Source: a virus
Taxonomy: Duplodnaviria > Heunggongvirae > Uroviricota > Caudoviricetes
Strand: one strand, 5' to 3'
Virus record (IMG/VR): IMGVR_UViG_3300012089_000069
Coordinates: 1 to 6,571 of that record
Length of the DNA stretch: 6,571 nt
Part shown: piece by piece, positions 1 through 6,571 of the stretch
Layout of the letters: the number at the start of each line of letters is the position of its first letter
Numbering within the stretch: the first letter of the stretch is position 1
Translations under genes and position numbers: made by a program
The notes under the pieces: model-generated
What the model was told of the DNA's origin: nothing
What the model saw: the letters and a program-made list of their open reading frames with translations, nothing else
Database searches by the model: none

Positions 1-51
1 AATCGCTTCCGGCAACTCGTGAGTAAAAAGATTCGGTATCAGAAGAGGTGA
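1..51 (+). CDS. 3' end of an upstream gene (partial; 5' end outside window), C-terminal peptide NRFRQLVSKKIRYQKR
   Basis: Frame 1 is open from position 1 to TGA at 49-51. The stop lies 2 nt before the ATG at 54 of the next gene, a coupling-type arrangement. Too short to assign a product. Confidence 0.3.
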   Translation, partial: NRFRQLVSKKIRYQKR

Positions 52-53
52 GT

Positions 54-1124
54 ATGGCTAACGCCTGGCTCAGATTATGGCATGACATGCCAAATGACCC
101 TAAGTGGCGAACAATTGCCAGGGTGTCAGGGCAGCCAATTGCAACAGTGATGGCAGTGTATATCCACCTCCTGGTGAGCGCGTCACGAAATGTCACGCGA
201 GGTCACATTGATGTCACGACAGAAGATTTGGCAAGTGCGCTCGACGTGACAGAAGAGGTAATTGATTCAATTTTGCAGACGATGCAGGGGCGGGTACTTG
301 ATGGTGATTTAATCACTGGATGGGAAAAACGCCAGGTGCTTAAAGAGGACAACGGCAATATTTCGCAAACCGCAAAATCTCCTGCAGAGCGCAAGAGGGC
401 GCAGCGAGAGAGGGAAAGAAAGCGGGAACAAAATGGCGATTGTCACGGCGCGTCACGAAATGTCACGCACATGTCACGACGAGTCACGACAGATAAAGAT
501 ACAGATAAAGATACAGATCAAGAAGATCAAAACACTATGGTCCATGGCGTAAAAAACGCCACGGACCAGGCAGGGGATGTTCAGACCGTCACTCCTGGCC
601 AGCCCGCAGGCACGACACCGGAAGCCGATTCAGCGTATGTGCTGAAAGCCGATTCGGGCGCTGTGCAGCAGGTGATGACCGCAAGGCAGGAGCAATCACA
701 CCAACTTCAGCAGCCTGAAGCCGATTCCGCCATTCAGCGGGAAGCCGATCGGGTAGTCCCGGAAAACACCGGGCAGCCTGTGGGACGAGTGGATTATCCT
801 GATGTGTTCGAACAGGTCTGGCGGGAATACCCGTTGCGTGCCGGGGCAAACCCGAAGAAATCCGCTTTCAGTGCCTGGAAAGCCAGATTACGCGAGGGGG
901 TGCCACCAGAGGCCATGCTGGATGGTGTGAGGCGTTACGCAAGATACCTGGCGGCTACCGGGAAAACGGGAACGGAATTTGTTCAGCGAGCGACGACGTT
1001 TTTTGGACCGGACCGGAATTTTGAAAACCCCTGGCTGCTCCCGGTAAGCGGCACGAACAACCAGCGTTGTGTGAATCATATTTCTGAACCGGATACCGAA
1101 ATTCCACCGGGCTTCAGGGGATAA
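54..1124 (+). CDS. Phage replication initiator / replisome-organizer-type protein with intragenic origin iterons
   Basis: Long ORF; ATG at 54 is preceded by AGAGGTG (the track's GTG at 48 is less likely). The N-terminus (MANAWLRLWHDMPNDPKWRTIA...) resembles phage replisome-organizer N-terminal domains. The C-terminal region (FEQVWREYPLRAGANPKKSAFSAWKARL...FENPW) resembles DnaD-like C-terminal domains of phage initiators. Two iteron clusters sit inside the ORF and translate to the repeated peptide ASRNVT(R/H)...VTT, as with lambda ori inside gene O. Family assignment is from memory, not a search. Confidence 0.7.
   Translation: MANAWLRLWHDMPNDPKWRTIARVSGQPIATVMAVYIHLLVSASRNVTRGHIDVTTEDLASALDVTEEVIDSILQTMQGRVLDGDLITGWEKRQVLKEDNGNISQTAKSPAERKRAQRERERKREQNGDCHGASRNVTHMSRRVTTDKDTDKDTDQEDQNTMVHGVKNATDQAGDVQTVTPGQPAGTTPEADSAYVLKADSGAVQQVMTARQEQSHQLQQPEADSAIQREADRVVPENTGQPVGRVDYPDVFEQVWREYPLRAGANPKKSAFSAWKARLREGVPPEAMLDGVRRYARYLAATGKTGTEFVQRATTFFGPDRNFENPWLLPVSGTNNQRCVNHISEPDTEIPPGFRG
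178..250. repeat. Iteron cluster 1: GTCACG/GTCACA copies starting at 182, 192, 202 and 213, plus an inverted copy CGTGAC at 245-250
   Basis: Direct repeats at 10-11 bp (one helical turn) spacing, read directly from the sequence. The 21-mer GCGCGTCACGAAATGTCACGC at 178-198 recurs exactly at 448-468. Confidence 0.65.
442..488. repeat. Iteron cluster 2: five GTCACG copies starting at 442, 452, 462, 473 and 483 (probable ori core)
   Basis: Five direct hexamer repeats with 10/10/11/10 bp phasing inside the replication gene, immediately followed by an AT-rich tandem repeat. Confidence 0.7.
491..530. repeat. AT-rich tandem repeat (AGATAAAGATAC x2, then AGATCAAGAAGATCAA); candidate DNA-unwinding element next to the iterons
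   Basis: Exact 12-bp tandem duplication at 491-502 and 503-514, then a related A-rich stretch. It translates to the low-complexity linker DKDTDKDTDQEDQ. Confidence 0.5.
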
Positions 1125-1164
1125 GTGTTGATTTCTGGTCATGAGGTAATTTTCAGGAGGACTT

Positions 1165-1587
1165 GTGGCAAAAGTTTTTACACAAGAAGAGCGAGAAAAA
1201 ATTAAAGGGCAGGTTGTTGAACTCGTACGCCAGAGTGGGCGTGAGACGTTACGGCAACTGGAAGTCAAGACAGGTGCGACAAGATATCTGATGAGCGTTC
1301 TCGCAAGAGAGCTGGTTGCCAGTGGCGATGTATACAACTCTGGTTACGGGTTATTCCCGTCTGAACAGGCGCGTAAGGACTGGCAAAATGCCCGTAAAAA
1401 GCTCTCAAGGGCAAAGCCGAAGAAAACATCTGCGGTTGATCCGGACCTTATCTGGTCATTACCAGATGGCGAAATACGCCGCTACGACAGGCGTCTGAAC
1501 ATAATCTGTCTCGAGTGCCGGAAGAGCGAAGTTATGCAGCGCGTACTGGCGTTTTATCAGGGGAATTTTGAGGAGGTGGTGCGGTGA
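1165..1587 (+). CDS. Hypothetical small phage protein (nin-region-like), 140 aa
   Basis: ORF with GTG start at 1165 preceded by AGGAGG (1155-1160). Its TGA stop overlaps the GTG of the next gene (GTGA). No motif recognised. Confidence 0.55.
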   Translation: MAKVFTQEEREKIKGQVVELVRQSGRETLRQLEVKTGATRYLMSVLARELVASGDVYNSGYGLFPSEQARKDWQNARKKLSRAKPKKTSAVDPDLIWSLPDGEIRRYDRRLNIICLECRKSEVMQRVLAFYQGNFEEVVR

Positions 1588-1838
1588 GTGAATCAAAATG
1601 CCAGGTTAATGGCAACAAGATAGAACCATGTGCAGCACTGGCAAAGTCCCTTGAGCATGATGCTGAATACACGATGCGAAAAGGTCTGCTGATATACAAA
1701 ATCTGGAATGAGAGTTTAACTCGCGGTCCTAATTTTGTGATGTTGCGTTCCGGTGAATTTTCTAAATTACCAGTTCGGGTTTCATTTTGTCCGTTCTGTG
1801 GTGAAAGTCTGAAAACGTGGGAGAACAGAAATGAATGA
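1584..1838 (+). CDS. Hypothetical small protein with four Cys (C6, C16, CPFC at 69-72), possible zinc-ribbon
   Basis: GTG start at 1584 overlaps the upstream stop (GTGA); AGGAGG at 1571-1576. Its stop overlaps the next start (ATGAATGA). Confidence 0.55.
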   Translation: MSESKCQVNGNKIEPCAALAKSLEHDAEYTMRKGLLIYKIWNESLTRGPNFVMLRSGEFSKLPVRVSFCPFCGESLKTWENRNE

Positions 1839-2142
1839 AATCAAAGAAATACCAGTAGTACGTGATGAATATGGCTGCTGGACGCATCCTGAATATGAAA
1901 AATTCTGTGACGGTCGGGAATATATTTCAACGGAAGAGTTTAACGCCTGGATGGAGGAAAATAATCTTCAATACGTCCTCTGCTTCAGAGATGAAGGATG
2001 TGCTGACCTTGATGCGTGTGATGCTGATATTTCTGCATGGGAACCGGAACGACCAGAGGGCAATGGATGGTTTATTGGTTCAATACATGACACCGAAGAT
2101 GGCCCGGTTTGTGTATGGCTGAGAAATAAGGCCGAAGCATAA
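1831..2142 (+). CDS. Hypothetical acidic Cys-containing small phage protein, 103 aa
   Basis: ATG at 1831 overlaps the upstream stop by 8 nt. The ORF ends where the AT-rich region begins. No motif recognised. Confidence 0.55.
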   Translation: MNEIKEIPVVRDEYGCWTHPEYEKFCDGREYISTEEFNAWMEENNLQYVLCFRDEGCADLDACDADISAWEPERPEGNGWFIGSIHDTEDGPVCVWLRNKAEA

Positions 2143-2247
2143 AGGCTATAAACCGACTAACAACTAAATACTGAAGATTTAAATCAGAAACGATTTTTAT
2201 TAAATCCTTAACCGGAGGGATTCCTGCACCCTCAAATCATCAGGAGG

Positions 2248-2263
2248 CCGCCCGAAAGGGCGG
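2248..2263 (+). promoter_or_regulatory. GC-rich stem-loop (CCGCCC-GAAA-GGGCGG) immediately upstream of the RBS of the Q-like gene
   Basis: Perfect 6-bp GC stem with a GNRA-type loop. No U-tract follows, so it is not a canonical intrinsic terminator. GGAG at 2265-2268 and ATG at 2275 follow directly. Confidence 0.3.
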
Positions 2264-2274
2264 TGGAGATAATA

Positions 2275-2796
2275 ATGGGAATAACTAAAGAACGATTGTT
2301 GGAAATAGCAAACCTTAGTGATTGGGCATTAAGTGATGAGAGAATTGTTTCTCCTCATGCTTATGAGTCAGTTACAAGTATAGAAATAACAACAATGGCT
2401 AGAATGCTGCTTGGTTATTTCAAAATAGAAAATAAAAAACAGATGGATAGTAATGTTGATATATGTGAGATTTTAGACGATTGGGGGGCTTGGGTTGTGG
2501 CTGGTAATAGTTCTATTGATTGGCAGGAAATAGCTGATAAATATAAAAATGTTGTTCCTCATGGTAAAAAATCACGTCGTCAGTGCAGCAATGATGAAGG
2601 GCGAATTATTGACATTAGTATCCTTATGTTAGAAAGATATAAGCAACAAGAATATGAGTTAATTGTTGCTCATTTCGTGATTGGTTTATCTCTTCGTGCT
2701 ATTGCAAAGCAACAAGGATGTTCAGATGGAACAATTCGTAAAAGATTGCAAAAAGCCTTAGGTTTTTTGACTGGATATATAGCAATTACCAGTTAA
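2275..2796 (+). CDS. Q-family late-gene antiterminator-like protein (phage 21/82-type Q; QuuD-like) with sigma-70 region-4-like C-terminal HTH
   Basis: ATG at 2275 with GGAG 6 nt upstream. The protein has a WGAW motif, SRRQCSNDEG, and a C-terminal GLSLRAIAKQQGCSDGTIRKRLQKALGFL. These match my recollection of E. coli DLP12 QuuD (ERWGAW ... SRPQCCDDD ... CSDGYIGKRLQKAEG). An alternative internal start at 2443 (MDSNVDICEILDDWGAW) would give a QuuD-length protein. The gene is AT-rich compared with the flanking phage genes. Confidence 0.65.
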   Translation: MGITKERLLEIANLSDWALSDERIVSPHAYESVTSIEITTMARMLLGYFKIENKKQMDSNVDICEILDDWGAWVVAGNSSIDWQEIADKYKNVVPHGKKSRRQCSNDEGRIIDISILMLERYKQQEYELIVAHFVIGLSLRAIAKQQGCSDGTIRKRLQKALGFLTGYIAITS

Positions 2797-3434
2797 GAGT
2801 CAGCGGTTTTTTTACCAGTGTAATGGTATAAGGATACTCCCATGTGTCTTACATGATATGGAAGCGCTGTTGCTGGATGCTTTGTGATACTCTTAAAGCG
2901 GAGGGGAGAGCCTTCCGCTTCAATTTCTGCGTCCGAAACGGTCGTAGAGAAAAATTCTTTCCATTCATTGAATTTTACTGCTGATTTGTCAGACTTTATA
3001 TAAATTAGAATTCCTCCATGATCGTCACGTGACGTACCCGTGCCGTAACGTTCGGTTAGCTGAATCCAGCCATTATGAATAGATTTGGGGCCTCTCCATA
3101 ATTTTGCTTCACCGATCCATTCGAATTTTCCGAATTGATGTTTAACTAATAAATCAACGTGACCGCCATGTTGAGTATCATGTTCAACATCATAAAACCT
3201 ACCTTTCAGGAAATTTTTGATCGACGCTGTTAGCTCGTCCTCTCCCCACTTAGCATCTTGATAGAAGTGTTTGTCATTTTCTAAATTCTGAATAGCGTCG
3301 TCTAAATCTTCATAGAGTTGCTTTACAAAAATATTTTTGTCTGCAGCTAATTTTCTTTGAACCATTCCCCTAAATTCAGGATCCATTCTAATTAATGATT
3401 GAAGGTCTGCAGTACAGATGTTTACATCACTCAT
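2793..3434 (-). CDS. Third gene of the minus-strand operon: putative PD-(D/E)xK / Mrr-like restriction-endonuclease-fold nuclease, 213 aa
   Basis: Likely start is the ATG at 3434-3432 (MSDVNIC...), which overlaps the upstream stop as ATGAGTGA. The track's longer N-terminus has no RBS and lies inside the upstream gene. Motif GGHVDLLV-x10-EWIGEAK (D94, E109, K111) fits D...(D/E)xK. The stop codon shares 2 nt with the stop of the convergent Q-like gene. Confidence 0.6.
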   Translation of the reverse strand: MSDVNICTADLQSLIRMDPEFRGMVQRKLAADKNIFVKQLYEDLDDAIQNLENDKHFYQDAKWGEDELTASIKNFLKGRFYDVEHDTQHGGHVDLLVKHQFGKFEWIGEAKLWRGPKSIHNGWIQLTERYGTGTSRDDHGGILIYIKSDKSAVKFNEWKEFFSTTVSDAEIEAEGSPLRFKSITKHPATALPYHVRHMGVSLYHYTGKKTADS

Positions 3435-3855
3435 GCAGACTCTCCAAAAGACTCGAAGGAGTAAAGTATGGATAAAGATACTGGCTAAAATTATCAACCA
3501 ATTCGCCAGTTTCTGGATGGTAAAAACTTCCTGTGTCTAAAGCATAGGAAATAAGATCATCTTCAACTGGTATTGGTTCTTCCGTTAAATTATCAATGTA
3601 TTGAAAATGCATATCCAATAGATGTGCTTTATAGCTAGATAAATAATCAGTTGCTTTTATTAGCAGGATATAGTCATCTTTCGTATCAGTTAGATAGGTT
3701 AAACCATTGATAAGGGTTTTGTATGTAAAGTGATTGATATTTTTAGCATCTTTACTAACCAGAAAAAGAAAAAGATCACGACACACACTGCGAACAGGAT
3801 CATTAAAATCCTGCTCTATTTGCGTGATAATGTCGTGATATATACTCTTTTTCAT
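3427..3855 (-). CDS. Second gene of the minus-strand operon: small acidic protein of unknown function, 142 aa
   Basis: ATG at 3855-3853 overlaps the stop of the upstream gene (ATGA). The protein is D/E-rich with no recognisable motif. AT-rich codon usage matches its neighbours. Confidence 0.6.
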   Translation of the reverse strand: MKKSIYHDIITQIEQDFNDPVRSVCRDLFLFLVSKDAKNINHFTYKTLINGLTYLTDTKDDYILLIKATDYLSSYKAHLLDMHFQYIDNLTEEPIPVEDDLISYALDTGSFYHPETGELVDNFSQYLYPYFTPSSLLESLHE

Positions 3856-4943
3856 TTATGGCCTGATGATCTCGCTCTTCTTTTCTCTTCACAGGACTTA
3901 ACAGAATCCAATATTTTTTCAACAATAAATATAATCGAATCAATGTTGTTACAGTTCTTCGCAATTGCTTCATGCAACCTAATTCTAGGATTATCAAGCA
4001 TTGTCCTTTTTCCTGGTAATATTAACTCTACTGATAAAATATGTGAAGAACTTTGTGGTAAATCCCAAATTTTTCCCAACTTAAACTTTGTCAATATTGG
4101 GCTTGCGGACTCTCCACTATGATGGTAAACATCTTGACGCAAACACTTTTGACTTGGTTTGAGTTTTAAAGAACTTGTATTGCCATCTGAGGTGATAAAA
4201 GATACATGAGAAATTCTGCCATCTACTTTTTCGTAAAGATCTTGTATTGAACCAAATAATTCAAGAGGATTGTTTAAAATAACGCCAGCTTCTTTTTTTA
4301 TAAATTTAGCCACAAGGTATTGTTGAGGCTGTGATTCACTTCTTGGAAGGATAGATAAATCAATCGTAAGAATTAATATTTTTTCTGCAGGCATTAGCAT
4401 GATGGTATTAAAGCATTGCGTGACTTGGCGTGTTTTGCATTTTATTTCTCCACCATTAGCACGTAATTCCATACCCGCATCGCTAAGATGTGTTGGGTCA
4501 AGCTCTATCACTTCAGTGTAATACGCTTTGGATAAAAAAACAGCAGTGTCAATTTGTTTATCACGAATGATATCTTGACGTAGTTCAGCAAAATGCAGCT
4601 CAGTATCAGCAACTAACAGCTCCTCTCTGGATAAAGGAGTTGGGTATTTTTCTGAGAAGGGGCTATTGTCCTTTTTCTGATTTGTGAAAATTGTTTGTAA
4701 TTTTGCTACGTCTTCATCGGTGATTCTATAAATAGAAAGTAATCGATTCCCGCTAAAAATTAAACCTTTCCAGAAATCGTCGATTCTGTCTTTTAGGTCG
4801 GGATTATGCTGAACTACACTATTTACACGTTCAATAAAAAGGGGTAATCCTTGGGCCGTTACACCCAGTGATGAACCAAGAAGCTTACGGGTGTTGCGCC
4901 AGCCAAAGCGTGAATTGATGTTTTTTACTGTTTGCTCAAGCAT
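3852..4943 (-). CDS. :: First gene of the minus-strand operon: 363-aa protein of unknown function, a candidate sensor or specificity component
   Basis: Long ORF. The probable start is ATG at 4943-4941 with AAGGAA 6 nt upstream; the track start at 4949 is a GTG two codons earlier. No Walker A, methyltransferase or obvious HEPN/TIR motif seen. The C-terminus is basic (KRRARSSGHK). Confidence 0.6.
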   Translation of the reverse strand: MLEQTVKNINSRFGWRNTRKLLGSSLGVTAQGLPLFIERVNSVVQHNPDLKDRIDDFWKGLIFSGNRLLSIYRITDEDVAKLQTIFTNQKKDNSPFSEKYPTPLSREELLVADTELHFAELRQDIIRDKQIDTAVFLSKAYYTEVIELDPTHLSDAGMELRANGGEIKCKTRQVTQCFNTIMLMPAEKILILTIDLSILPRSESQPQQYLVAKFIKKEAGVILNNPLELFGSIQDLYEKVDGRISHVSFITSDGNTSSLKLKPSQKCLRQDVYHHSGESASPILTKFKLGKIWDLPQSSSHILSVELILPGKRTMLDNPRIRLHEAIAKNCNNIDSIIFIVEKILDSVKSCEEKRRARSSGHK

Positions 4944-4949
4944 TAACAC

Positions 4950-5100
4950 TTCCTTAATTTTCCCTTAACAATTTAGGGTGCTAAACTTTTTTGCGCAGTT
5001 TACATAAAAAAATAGTGCGTACGCAAAAACTATCTAACATGATGAGCTTTAACCGGGAAATTTGTATATGTTGTGAGCATAAAGTTGGCTGAGAAATCTA
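4950..5100 (-). promoter_or_regulatory. Probable promoter/operator region of the three-gene operon, containing the perfect palindrome TGCGTACGCA (5016-5025)
   Basis: AT-rich non-coding DNA upstream of the first operon gene. Only weak sigma-70-like hexamers can be picked out by eye. The 10-bp palindrome is a candidate operator. Confidence 0.3.
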
Positions 5101-5289
5101 AAACGGGTAGAATGACTGCGGGTGCTTGAGGCTATCTGTCTCAGGCATGAACACCAAAAGGCAGATAGAGAAAAGCCCCAGTTAACATTACGCGTCCGGC
5201 AAGACGCTTAACATTAATCTGAGGCCATATCTATGCTCTACACACGTAGGTTAGCCTCTTACGTGCCGAAAGGCAAGGAGAAGCAGGCT

Positions 5290-5445
5290 ATGAAGCAGCA
5301 AAAGGCGATGCTAATCGCCCTGATCGTCATCTGTTTAACCGTCATAGTGACGGCACTGGTAACGAGGAAAGACCTCTGCGAGGTACGAATCCGAACCGGC
5401 CAGACGGAGGTCGCTGTCTTCACAGCTTACGAACCTGAGGAGTAA
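5290..5445 (+). CDS. hokD: Hok/Gef-family type I toxin (small membrane host-killing peptide), 51 aa
   Basis: Peptide MKQQKAMLIALIVICLTVIVTALVTRKDLCEVRIRTGQTEVAVFTAYEPEE carries the Hok signature (CLT...LVTRKDLCE...EVAVFTAYE). As I recall it, this matches E. coli HokD/RelF. AAGGAG at 5274-5279. The track's upstream in-frame ATG at 5233 is unlikely to be the true start. Confidence 0.85.
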   Translation: MKQQKAMLIALIVICLTVIVTALVTRKDLCEVRIRTGQTEVAVFTAYEPEE

Positions 5446-5513
5446 GAGACCAGGCGGGGGAGAATCCCTCGCCACCTCTGATGTGTCAGGCATCCTCAAC
5501 GCACCCGCACTTA

Positions 5514-5539
5514 ACCCGCTTCGGCGGGTTTTGTTTTTT
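5514..5539 (+). terminator. Rho-independent terminator downstream of hok (ACCCGC-TTCG-GCGGGT followed by TTTTGTTTTTT)
   Basis: Perfect 6-bp GC-rich stem with a TTCG loop and an 11-nt T-rich tract, read directly from the sequence. Confidence 0.75.
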
Positions 5540-5611
5540 CCTGGCATTCTGGTTTACAATTCGCACGCCAGCCTGAACAACTGGCACCTGCTGCGCCAGC
5601 AGAGACAACCG

Positions 5612-5884
5612 ATGGCGCACAAAACCAAATTTCACAATTCTGATACCGCCCTTGCCATCCGGCATGGGCGGCGTTCACACGCATTTAAAACCGACTGGTA
5701 CCAACACCCACCATGTACTGAAGAACAGGCCGAATGGCTAATTCATAACTACCGCAGACGCGGATACGAGATTAAGAAAGCCCTCAGCCTCGATTATCGT
5801 CACTGGATAATCTTCGTCAGGCTCCCTTATTCCGAACGCCCACCGCGTCCGTCCCGCACATTCCAGCAACGCATCTGGAGGTAA
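5612..5884 (+). CDS. Small basic prophage protein, possibly Rem-like (by synteny with the hokD-rem-ydfU order in E. coli Qin prophage), 90 aa
   Basis: ATG at 5612 is more plausible than the track's GTG at 5483, which would overlap the hok terminator. Its stop is 1 nt before the next gene's GTG. Identity is inferred from gene order only. Confidence 0.5.
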   Translation: MAHKTKFHNSDTALAIRHGRRSHAFKTDWYQHPPCTEEQAEWLIHNYRRRGYEIKKALSLDYRHWIIFVRLPYSERPPRPSRTFQQRIWR

Positions 5885-5885
5885 C

Positions 5886-6571
5886 GTGCGGGTATTACTT
5901 CGACCTGTTCCGGTACCGGAACTTGGGCTGGTGGTGCTAAAACCGGGCCGTGAATCCATGCAGGTATTTCATAATCCTCGAGTTCTGGTGGAGCCGGAAC
6001 CGAAAAGCATGCGCGGTCTGCCGTCCGGAGTCGTTCCTGCCGTTCGCCAGCCATTGGCGGAGGATAAATCATTACTGCCATTTTTCAGCGATGAGCGGGT
6101 GATTCGTGCTGCTGGTGGTGCTGGTGCACTGTCTGACTGGCTGTTACGCCACATTAAATCCTGCCAGTGGCCTCATGGTGACTACCATCACAGCGAAACC
6201 GTCATACATCGTTACGGTACCGGTGCAATGGTGTTGTGTTGGCACTGCGACAACCAGCTGCGTGACCAGACTTCCGAATCACTCGGGCAGCTTGCTCACC
6301 AAAATTTGTCAGCATGGATGATTGACGTCATACGCCATGCAATGAATGGCACGCAGGAGCGGGAATTATCGCTGGCTGAATTATCCTGGTGGGCAACCAT
6401 AAATAACGTAGCGGACGCACTACCGGAGACGGTATTACGTCGTTCTCTGGGGTTACGTGCGGAAAAAATCCGCTCGGTGTACCGCGAAAGCGACATCATA
6501 CCGGGAGAGCAGACAGCCACCAGCATCCTGAAACAGCGCACAAAAAATCTTGCGCCGCTGCCTCACGCCCA
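5886..6571 (+). CDS. Cys/His-rich prophage protein, YdfU/DUF968-like (partial; 3' end outside window)
   Basis: Frame is open from GTG at 5886 to the window end (228 codons, no stop). Contains a CQWPHGDYHHSETVIHRYGTGAMVLCWHCDN metal-binding-like cluster. Synteny after hok matches Qin prophage. Not in the ORF track because it has no stop inside the window. Confidence 0.6.
   Translation, partial: MRVLLRPVPVPELGLVVLKPGRESMQVFHNPRVLVEPEPKSMRGLPSGVVPAVRQPLAEDKSLLPFFSDERVIRAAGGAGALSDWLLRHIKSCQWPHGDYHHSETVIHRYGTGAMVLCWHCDNQLRDQTSESLGQLAHQNLSAWMIDVIRHAMNGTQERELSLAELSWWATINNVADALPETVLRRSLGLRAEKIRSVYRESDIIPGEQTATSILKQRTKNLAPLPHA

Follow-up and report, generated by a model that had tools for sequence, protein, structure and literature searches.

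A probable iteron-type replication origin inside the initiator gene of a widespread group of lambdoid prophages

The stretch of DNA analyzed in this work (6,571 nucleotides, hereafter "the window") corresponds to positions 1 to 6,571 of the IMG/VR record IMGVR_UViG_3300012089_000069, a virus of the class Caudoviricetes. At 54-1124 on the plus strand it contains an open reading frame (ORF) for a 356-aa protein, hereafter the initiator, which is named "phage replisome organizer" in RefSeq/NCBI and whose RefSeq start is likewise at 54. We propose that the region 178-568 is probably a theta-type, iteron-type replication origin of a lambdoid prophage, located inside the gene of its own initiator. 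The anatomy of the sequence, its conservation, the co-variation of the repeats, the selection that acts on the DNA, and the predicted domain folds and the similarities of the protein are established here. This reading is unsurprising in principle, as origins within initiator genes are known from other phages and plasmids, but the origin of this family is very widespread, has good support from comparison and seems not to have been described before. Our analysis followed up an earlier note, made from the sequence alone, which had drawn attention to repeat clusters in this gene and likened them to the lambda ori. The core of its interpretation, iterons and an unwinding element within the gene of the initiator that would bind them, agrees with all of the computational tests applied: the plan is retained in distant relatives, the two arrays co-vary, synonymous sites are constrained, and the N-domain is a predicted winged helix, with array 2 and the AT-rich tract coding for the interdomain linker.

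Anatomy of the putative origin

The hexamer GTCACG occurs 14 times in the window on both strands, compared to a mean of 2.0 copies expected by chance (200 dinucleotide-preserving shuffles; standard deviation 1.43, maximum 7), and 9 of the 14 copies fall within 182-488. Array 1 (178-220, plus strand) comprises four directly oriented cores (182-187, 192-197, 203-208 and 213-218; spacing 10/11/10 bp), of which those starting at 182, 192 and 213 are exact, while the gap at 203 is filled by GTCACA, with one mismatch. An exact inverted copy is found at 245-250 (minus strand; CGTGAC on the plus strand, where it codes for D-V-T). The "4 copies" reported for this cluster in the earlier note are therefore to be understood either as three exact and one variant direct repeat, or as four exact ones with the inverted copy included. 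Array 2 (438-490, plus strand) exhibits the five exact cores that had been reported, at 442, 452, 462, 473 and 483 (spacing 10/10/11/10 bp), and is described by Tandem Repeats Finder as a repeat of period 10 with 5.0 copies at 441-491. The iteron unit is 10-11 bp long in both arrays, in agreement with the suggested phasing at one helical turn, and has an asymmetric core of 6-8 bp, (T/G)GTCACG(A/C), in direct orientation throughout each array. The two arrays are separated by ~260 bp and have in common the previously noted 21-mer GCGCGTCACGAAATGTCACGC, identical at 178-198 and 448-468 (one copy per array, 270 nt apart); the identity ends exactly at these positions, with different flanking bases on both sides. 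Phage Tritos is near-identical, and its complete genome (46,360 bp) has 25 copies of GTCACG, 9 of them in the two arrays, which are the only clusters there. The repeats are genuine and far more frequent than expected by chance, and in the phage genome they cluster only in the two arrays. Iteron origins in general possess at least three regularly spaced direct repeats, and here 4 + 5 direct copies are present at 10-11 bp.

Array 2 is directly adjoined by an AT-rich tract (489-536, plus strand) with a purine-rich top strand, presumed to be a DNA unwinding element. It consists of 2.9 copies of the 12-bp tandem repeat ACAGATAAAGAT (489-523, 95% matches, GC ~33%), followed by CAAGAAGATCAAAAC. The GC content is 0.35 at 481-520 and 0.325 at 501-540 vs 0.55-0.70 on either side, which is the minimum within the initiator gene; the AT-rich duplication recognized by the earlier note is thus confirmed. 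An AT-rich element adjoining the repeats, another general feature of iteron origins, is therefore present at 481-540, and low GC in this place is found family-wide (see below). The AT-rich tract is followed by an inverted repeat at 538-568, with arms of 12-13 bp (GGTCCATGGCGT and ACGCCACGGACC) and an A5 loop (AAAAA). Folded as single-stranded DNA it reaches -13.1 kcal/mol (z = -6.1; equalled by none of 200 shuffles) and outscores all control windows of the initiator gene. Together with TAGTGTTTTG the hairpin also fits a simple intrinsic-terminator pattern on the minus strand, but the number of such matches equals the chance expectation. Two GATC sites (516-519 and 525-528, 9 bp apart) are positioned at the distal end of the AT-rich tract. 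GATC is otherwise scarce in the window (14 sites vs 25 expected), and enterobacterial relatives also have GATC at the ends of their tracts, which hints at a possible control by Dam and SeqA, as at oriC.

Conservation among relatives and switching of the iteron type

Relatives were identified through two conserved peptides of the N-terminal domain of the initiator (N-domain), and the sample is therefore confined to that domain family. A pattern scan with one genome per species yielded 58 loci coding for an N-domain relative, and more were added from phages and metagenomes; hexamers were counted as exact words, which misses degenerate iterons, in the first 700 nt of each relative's gene. This comparison, which the earlier note had proposed, revealed the same plan of two arrays and AGATAA-type repeats almost everywhere, in ~55 loci from Gamma-, Beta- and Alphaproteobacteria, metagenome-assembled genomes (MAGs) of Acidobacteria and phages. 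The arrays of the relatives start near +129 and at +360 to +430 of the gene, with 10-11 bp spacing, and the AGATAA-type repeats come next. In 42 of the 46 array-bearing loci a repeat of the form AGATWM begins at most 25 nt past the last exact iteron, mostly after 2-4 nt. In the 45 bp after array 2 the mean GC content of the 46 loci is 0.30-0.38 vs 0.51-0.61 on both sides, and the coding strand is 67-78% purine.

The sequence of the core differs between the relatives: GTCACG is found in enterics, Pseudomonas, Bordetella, Aquitalea, Stenotrophomonas and others, GTAACG in another set of relatives, CGAACG in many Betaproteobacteria and some Acidobacteria MAGs, and GCAACG in the Ralstonia phage Hennie. 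The co-variation test was based on 53 non-redundant loci, in 43 of which some NNNACG word occurs twice or more in each of the two regions. In 38 of these 43 the two arrays are dominated by an identical word; random re-pairing yielded 15.5 such loci on average and never more than 27 (10,000 trials). Conservation of the repeats in relatives and their co-variation with the initiator, which are also expected of iteron origins in general, are thus both observed. As to the inverted copy, 17 of the 26 GTCACG-type loci retain CGTGAC and 21 retain GTGAC; synonymous co-variation of its Val codon with the GTCACG and GTAACG types gave a mixed result and was not used.

Comparison of the sequences indicates that the iteron type follows the N-domain, while the C-terminal domains (C-domains) and the helicase or loader genes downstream vary. 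The Pseudomonas phages phi1 and phita81A share with the initiator only residues 1-138 (69.5% identity) and have GTCACG arrays at the same positions; their C-terminal part is unrelated and a 609-aa "replication protein P" is encoded downstream. A dnaB gene is found downstream of the initiator relative in phage Hennie, and a DnaC-like IstB_IS21 gene in three metagenomic relatives. Conversely, in Shigella phage POCJ13 the similarity is limited to the C-terminal half, and its gene, with a different N-domain, is devoid of GTCACG arrays; this single case is consistent with the iterons following the N-domain. Pfam typing of the relatives' C-domains was mostly uninformative. We also found the winged-helix N-domain joined to HNH endonuclease domains (PF01844, PF14279) in short metagenomic proteins of ~180-190 aa (P0155, P0173, P0174, P0186, P0210, P0211 and P0218), an unexpected fusion for an origin-binding domain.

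Selection on the DNA

The earlier note stated that the iterons are in frame and that the protein carries a repeated peptide for this reason. This turned out to be incorrect: with a spacing of 10-11 bp the hexamers occupy all three reading frames (codon phases 2, 0, 2, 0 for the direct repeats of array 1 and 1, 2, 0, 2, 0 for array 2), and repeated peptides result only from the 21-mer (ASRNVT, encoded twice) and from the 12-bp repeat (TDKDTDKDTD), not from the iterons generally. Synonymous sites were analyzed in 22 GTCACG-type loci from many genera, in a gap-free alignment over codons 1-75. Third codon positions are 97% identical inside the four hexamers vs 57% elsewhere (Mann-Whitney p = 2e-5), which argues that selection acts on the DNA, and four-fold degenerate positions within the hexamers are 91-100% conserved across genera. 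Differences in length of the array-1 loop and of the linker, both among alleles and among relatives, correspond to whole iterons. The AGATAA-type tract also looks like a feature of the DNA, judging from its reading frames: 33 loci have the GAT of the repeat in frame, 9 have it in another frame, and some lineages exhibit GATAA repeats with a 5-bp period that code for different peptides.

The initiator protein

The initiator matches phrog_3729 ("replication initiation protein") over its full length with an E-value of 1e-255, and PHROG "replisome organizer" families with E-values of 1e-5 to 2e-4. The Pfam search with the whole protein at default thresholds reported no match at E<=0.01, and at E<=10 only PF09681 and HTH_Crp_2 appeared; neither PF06970 (RepA_N) nor the lambda O N-terminal family (which we take to be Phage_rep_O) was matched in the Pfam scans. 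The match of the N-domain to PF09681 (Phage_rep_org_N; E=0.0085, 16.5 bits) is below the cut-off of 23.3 but covers model positions 1-119 of 121, and a remote kinship is plausible.

The N-domain (aa 1-128, encoded at 54-437, plus strand) is the presumed iteron binder. Its model, built with an alignment of 42 sequences, has a pLDDT of 82.5 and predicts helices 4-14, 16-25, 29-45, 56-63 and 67-77 and a β-hairpin 78-87, i.e. a winged helix. The predicted fold may resemble the N-terminal domain of DnaD and RepA_N, with moderate fold matches; Foldseek reported no significant match for the N-domain, with winged-helix regulators at the top of the list. The full-length model is poor, and its residues 128-248 have a pLDDT below 50, consistent with a disordered linker.

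The C-domain (~aa 248-356, encoded at 795-1124, plus strand) was identified as DnaT-like by a search of PDB sequences with the family profile, which reported the C-terminal domain of DnaT (6aep, E=3e-8; 2ru8, E=3e-6; 9zbt, E=1e-5). The alignment covers ~100 C-terminal residues, including the terminal SEPDxxIPPGFRG motif (tail SEPDTEIPPGFRG in the window). The NCBIfam DnaT model (PRK02854) matches the last 24 residues only (E=0.0014; 18.2 bits vs a cut-off of 201). The initiator is thus predicted to have a winged helix at its N-terminus (1-128) and a DnaT-like domain at its C-terminus (~248-356), joined by a disordered linker. With respect to this layout, array 2 encodes the start of the linker (aa 130-145; aa 130-157 if the 12-bp repeats are included and ~aa 130-160 together with the AT-rich tract), as the earlier note had placed the iterons, while array 1 (nt 182-218) encodes residues 44-56, inside the N-domain, where they form the loop that connects helix 29-45, the first of the winged-helix motif, with helix 56-63.

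A different repeat is present further along the linker, upstream of the DnaT-like domain: four copies of GAAGCCGATTC at 619-750 code for "EADS" peptides. Their number varies among E. coli alleles (deletions in P0002, P0005 and P0020), and the motif recurs in POCJ13 and in relatives with 47% identity. It could act as a short acidic motif for interactions or, alternatively, represent another DNA element.

Genomic context and distribution

In E. coli FDAARGOS_536 and in phage Tritos the order of genes is: cI-like repressor, cro, a YdaT-family gene, the initiator and a DUF977/Ren-like gene, i.e. the locus is an early-right operon of the Qin/Rac-like lambdoid type. The DUF977/Ren-like gene occupies the place directly downstream of the initiator, with no P-type loader there. 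No helicase or helicase-loader gene is annotated in the whole genome of Tritos, and none follows the initiator in the window (1125-2142); the initiator is the only replication gene of a Tritos-type phage. None of the public records inspected, FDAARGOS_536 and Tritos among them, has an origin annotated at the initiator gene.

Bases 54-570, which encompass the N-domain, both arrays and the AT-rich tract, were detected in 2078 (38%) of the 5426 complete E. coli genomes. A genome can have this module in up to four places with the same iteron core, and prophages of O157:H7 with a different C-terminal domain are among the carriers. With an origin module in so many E. coli genomes, sometimes in several copies, a known origin provides a handle on prophage induction, on the copy-number amplification of genes carried by prophages, on cross-talk and incompatibility between co-resident prophages and on the construction of phage-derived replicons. 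Moreover, the switches of the iteron (GTCACG, GTAACG, CGAACG, GCAACG) on a highly conserved winged-helix domain represent a natural specificity series, and with the binding sites inside the gene of the binder the family is a clean system to study how the specificity of initiators for their origins evolves.

Proposed mechanism and comparison with known origins

The mechanism outlined here (binding, melting and helicase recruitment) is inferred from lambda O, SPP1 gp38 and pSK41 Rep. The N-terminal winged-helix domain would bind the short direct iterons, one per helical turn, so that the bound molecules line up on one face of the DNA; both array 2 and, ~260 bp upstream, the auxiliary array 1 would be occupied. 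Oligomerization, possibly with looping between the arrays, would then melt the (AGATAA)n tract at 489-536, and the hairpin-forming inverted repeat at 538-568 would mark the far border of the melted region. A flexible linker, whose coding sequence is part of the origin, would tether the DnaT-like C-domains next to the melted tract. There they would bind the single strand and bring in the host DnaB-DnaC, because the phage encodes neither a loader nor a helicase.

The presence of a DnaT-like C-domain in the absence of a phage loader suggests a link between the firing of the phage origin and the replication-restart machinery of the host. We speculate that the initiator, tethered to the origin, could mimic DnaT, a restart protein of the host, with the origin firing via the DnaB-DnaC loading of the replication-restart pathway, although we regard this extended version as rather doubtful. 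The C-domains would in this case form a filament on the exposed strand, either alone or with the host DnaT or PriA. Such a mimicry would explain how a complete lambdoid phage can do without a helicase or loader gene. It would also mean that the induction of one prophage fires the origins of its resident relatives as well, given that an E. coli genome can have up to four prophages with identical iterons. The initiators of co-resident prophages may cross-activate each other's origins or compete for them.

By analogy, the proposed origin would work like the lambda ori, the pSK41 RepA_N ori and the SPP1 oriL, without being a member of any of these families. The lambda ori, with iterons and an AT-rich tract in the middle of gene O, functions by formation of the O-some and opening of the AT-rich tract. 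The similarity, pointed out by the earlier note, is in the layout, which is conserved here with co-varying arrays: an origin nested in the initiator gene, an AT-rich tract immediately after an iteron array, and a region that codes for the connector between the DNA-binding N-domain and the C-domain (helicase-recruiting in lambda), here aa 130-160. Lambda also has a palindrome after the AT-rich tract, like that at 538-568. The similarity does not extend to the protein, which belongs to another family, with no Pfam match to lambda O, and has no P-type loader gene beside it. The iterons are different as well: those of lambda are 19-bp imperfect inverted repeats, while here there are direct units of 10-11 bp with a 6-8 bp asymmetric core instead of 19-bp dyad-symmetric iterons, and a second array is located 260 bp upstream, within the region coding for the DNA-binding domain.

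In pSK41 Rep, the DnaD-like N-domain binds Rep boxes in the center of rep, and the segment encoded by the ori is a dispensable linker. However, the iterons of RepA_N replicons are usually semi-palindromic around a poly-A tract, the initiator described here has no PF06970 match, the C-domain of pSK41 Rep binds the DnaG primase whereas ours resembles DnaT, and RepA_N initiators belong to Firmicute plasmids, ours to proteobacterial prophages. SPP1 gp38 binds direct repeats beside an AT-rich unwinding element inside gene 38 (oriL), which is likewise the arrangement found here. The match to the SPP1/lactococcal organizers (PF09681) is weak and below the cut-off, and membership is not demonstrable by sequence; SPP1 also possesses another origin, at a distance of 13 kb, and encodes a loader (gp39) and a helicase (gp40), while the phage from the window has neither of these two proteins. 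As to DnaT (primosomal protein I), the C-terminal domain of the E. coli protein forms helical filaments on single-stranded DNA (ssDNA) and docks on PriA, and it is this ssDNA-binding domain that the C-domain of the initiator resembles. The initiator differs from DnaT by the lack of the N-terminal oligomerization domain and of the PriB-binding linker, and by the fusion of the DnaT-like domain to a putative sequence-specific origin binder.

Short (6-8 bp) direct repeats in two separate clusters, bound by their own initiator, are also known from the satellite phage P4 (ori/crr) and from the SaPI origins, in the latter of which the clusters are associated with an AT-rich stretch; the initiators of P4 and SaPIs are primase-helicases, and the clusters are not known to lie inside the sequence coding for the DNA-binding domain. 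The oriJ of the Rac prophage was considered as an equivalent and rejected: at this place Rac of K-12 has ydaU, a member of another family (DUF1376), with different and weaker repeats, and two papers that mention oriJ give no origin at the sequence level. What distinguishes the putative origin described here are the very short direct iterons, one per helical turn, and the second array within the sequence coding for the DNA-binding domain, together with, as judged from sequence comparisons, a predicted unwinding element of purine-asymmetric hexamer repeats and a DnaT-like effector domain in a lineage with no phage loader.

Alternative explanations

Several observations weigh against the proposed origin or limit its support. 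Nine of the 53 relatives have no array 1 detectable by the exact-word test, and five of these have no array 2 either. The loci are phylogenetically related, and the counts therefore overstate the number of independent events; independent support appears to come only from the 3-4 iteron types, each of which shows the concordance of the two arrays. An inverted repeat of comparable prominence follows the AT-rich tract in only 10 of the 46 relatives, so the hairpin was dropped as a family trait and 538-568 is treated as a local feature that is apparently not general in the family. No DnaA box (<=1 mismatch) was found within 1-1069. We found no paper on the origin of this initiator family, although older work on lambdoid phages in subscription journals may have been missed; the literature on GTCACG iterons, on origins of lambdoid replisome organizers and on the replication of phages D3 and Tritos contained nothing on the family.

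The arrays might instead be operator or roadblock sites, by which the initiator regulates its own gene or on which another early regulator acts, such as the CII-like YdaT protein encoded just upstream, with no origin involved. They are indeed located within a transcribed gene, where a bound protein would block the gene's own transcription, YdaT-family and Cro-like genes are directly upstream in relatives of the window, and a weak promoter-like match on the minus strand (466-439) overlaps array 2. However, a single match of this kind is what is expected by chance (0.9), the iteron type goes with the initiator's N-domain even where the neighboring genes differ, the Pseudomonas and Ralstonia phages have no YdaT gene in their annotation, and the arrays are always coupled to the AT-rich tract. 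We consider this explanation very unlikely, and autoregulation would not exclude an origin, as iteron initiators often do both. Another possibility is that only array 2, the AT-rich tract and the hairpin constitute the origin, while array 1 is a control element (for titration, handcuffing or as a copy-number brake) or a leftover duplicate. In lambda and SPP1 it is the iterons beside the AT-rich tract that are described as the origin, the common 21-mer could reflect gene conversion between the arrays, and the strict exact-word test found array 2 (at least three copies) without array 1 in four relatives, in addition to the five loci with neither. On the other hand, array 1 has not shifted its codon positions in 22 loci of many genera, where its synonymous sites hardly vary, and it switches its core together with array 2, which implies selection for the same binding specificity; in phages encoding Shiga toxin (Stx phages), whose origins have 6 iterons, extra distal iterons can be required for replication. 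A separate role of array 1 is thus unlikely, and it would refine rather than replace the proposed origin; both this explanation and that of regulator sites are compatible with an origin function of array 2.

Finally, the repeats could have no function at the DNA level and be a by-product, either of slippage in a linker of low complexity or of selection for a peptide repeat. The peptides ASRNVT and TDKDTDKDTD mentioned above, the predicted disorder of the linker and the variable copy number among alleles would fit such a scenario. It is contradicted by the hexamers being read in all three frames, by the conservation of their four-fold degenerate sites (91-100%, compared to a mean of 57% for flanking third positions) and by the AGATAA motif, which 9 of 42 loci retain in other frames and with a 5-bp period, resulting in different peptides. 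An origin of the pattern in peptide repeats is hardly credible and was rejected on the grounds of the reading frames and of the conservation of synonymous sites.

Other features of the window

A three-gene cassette with overlapping ends (234, 142 and 365 aa) is encoded on the minus strand at 2793-4949, between a gene for a Q-like antiterminator (2263-2796) and hok/sok. Its products have no Pfam match and one weak PADLOC match (PDC-S54, E=0.002), and it may be an uncharacterized moron or defense cassette. The hok/sok-type toxin-antitoxin locus (5120-5445) was identified by the Rfam sok model at 5120-5295 (117 bits) and contains a Hok-like ORF at 5233-5445.

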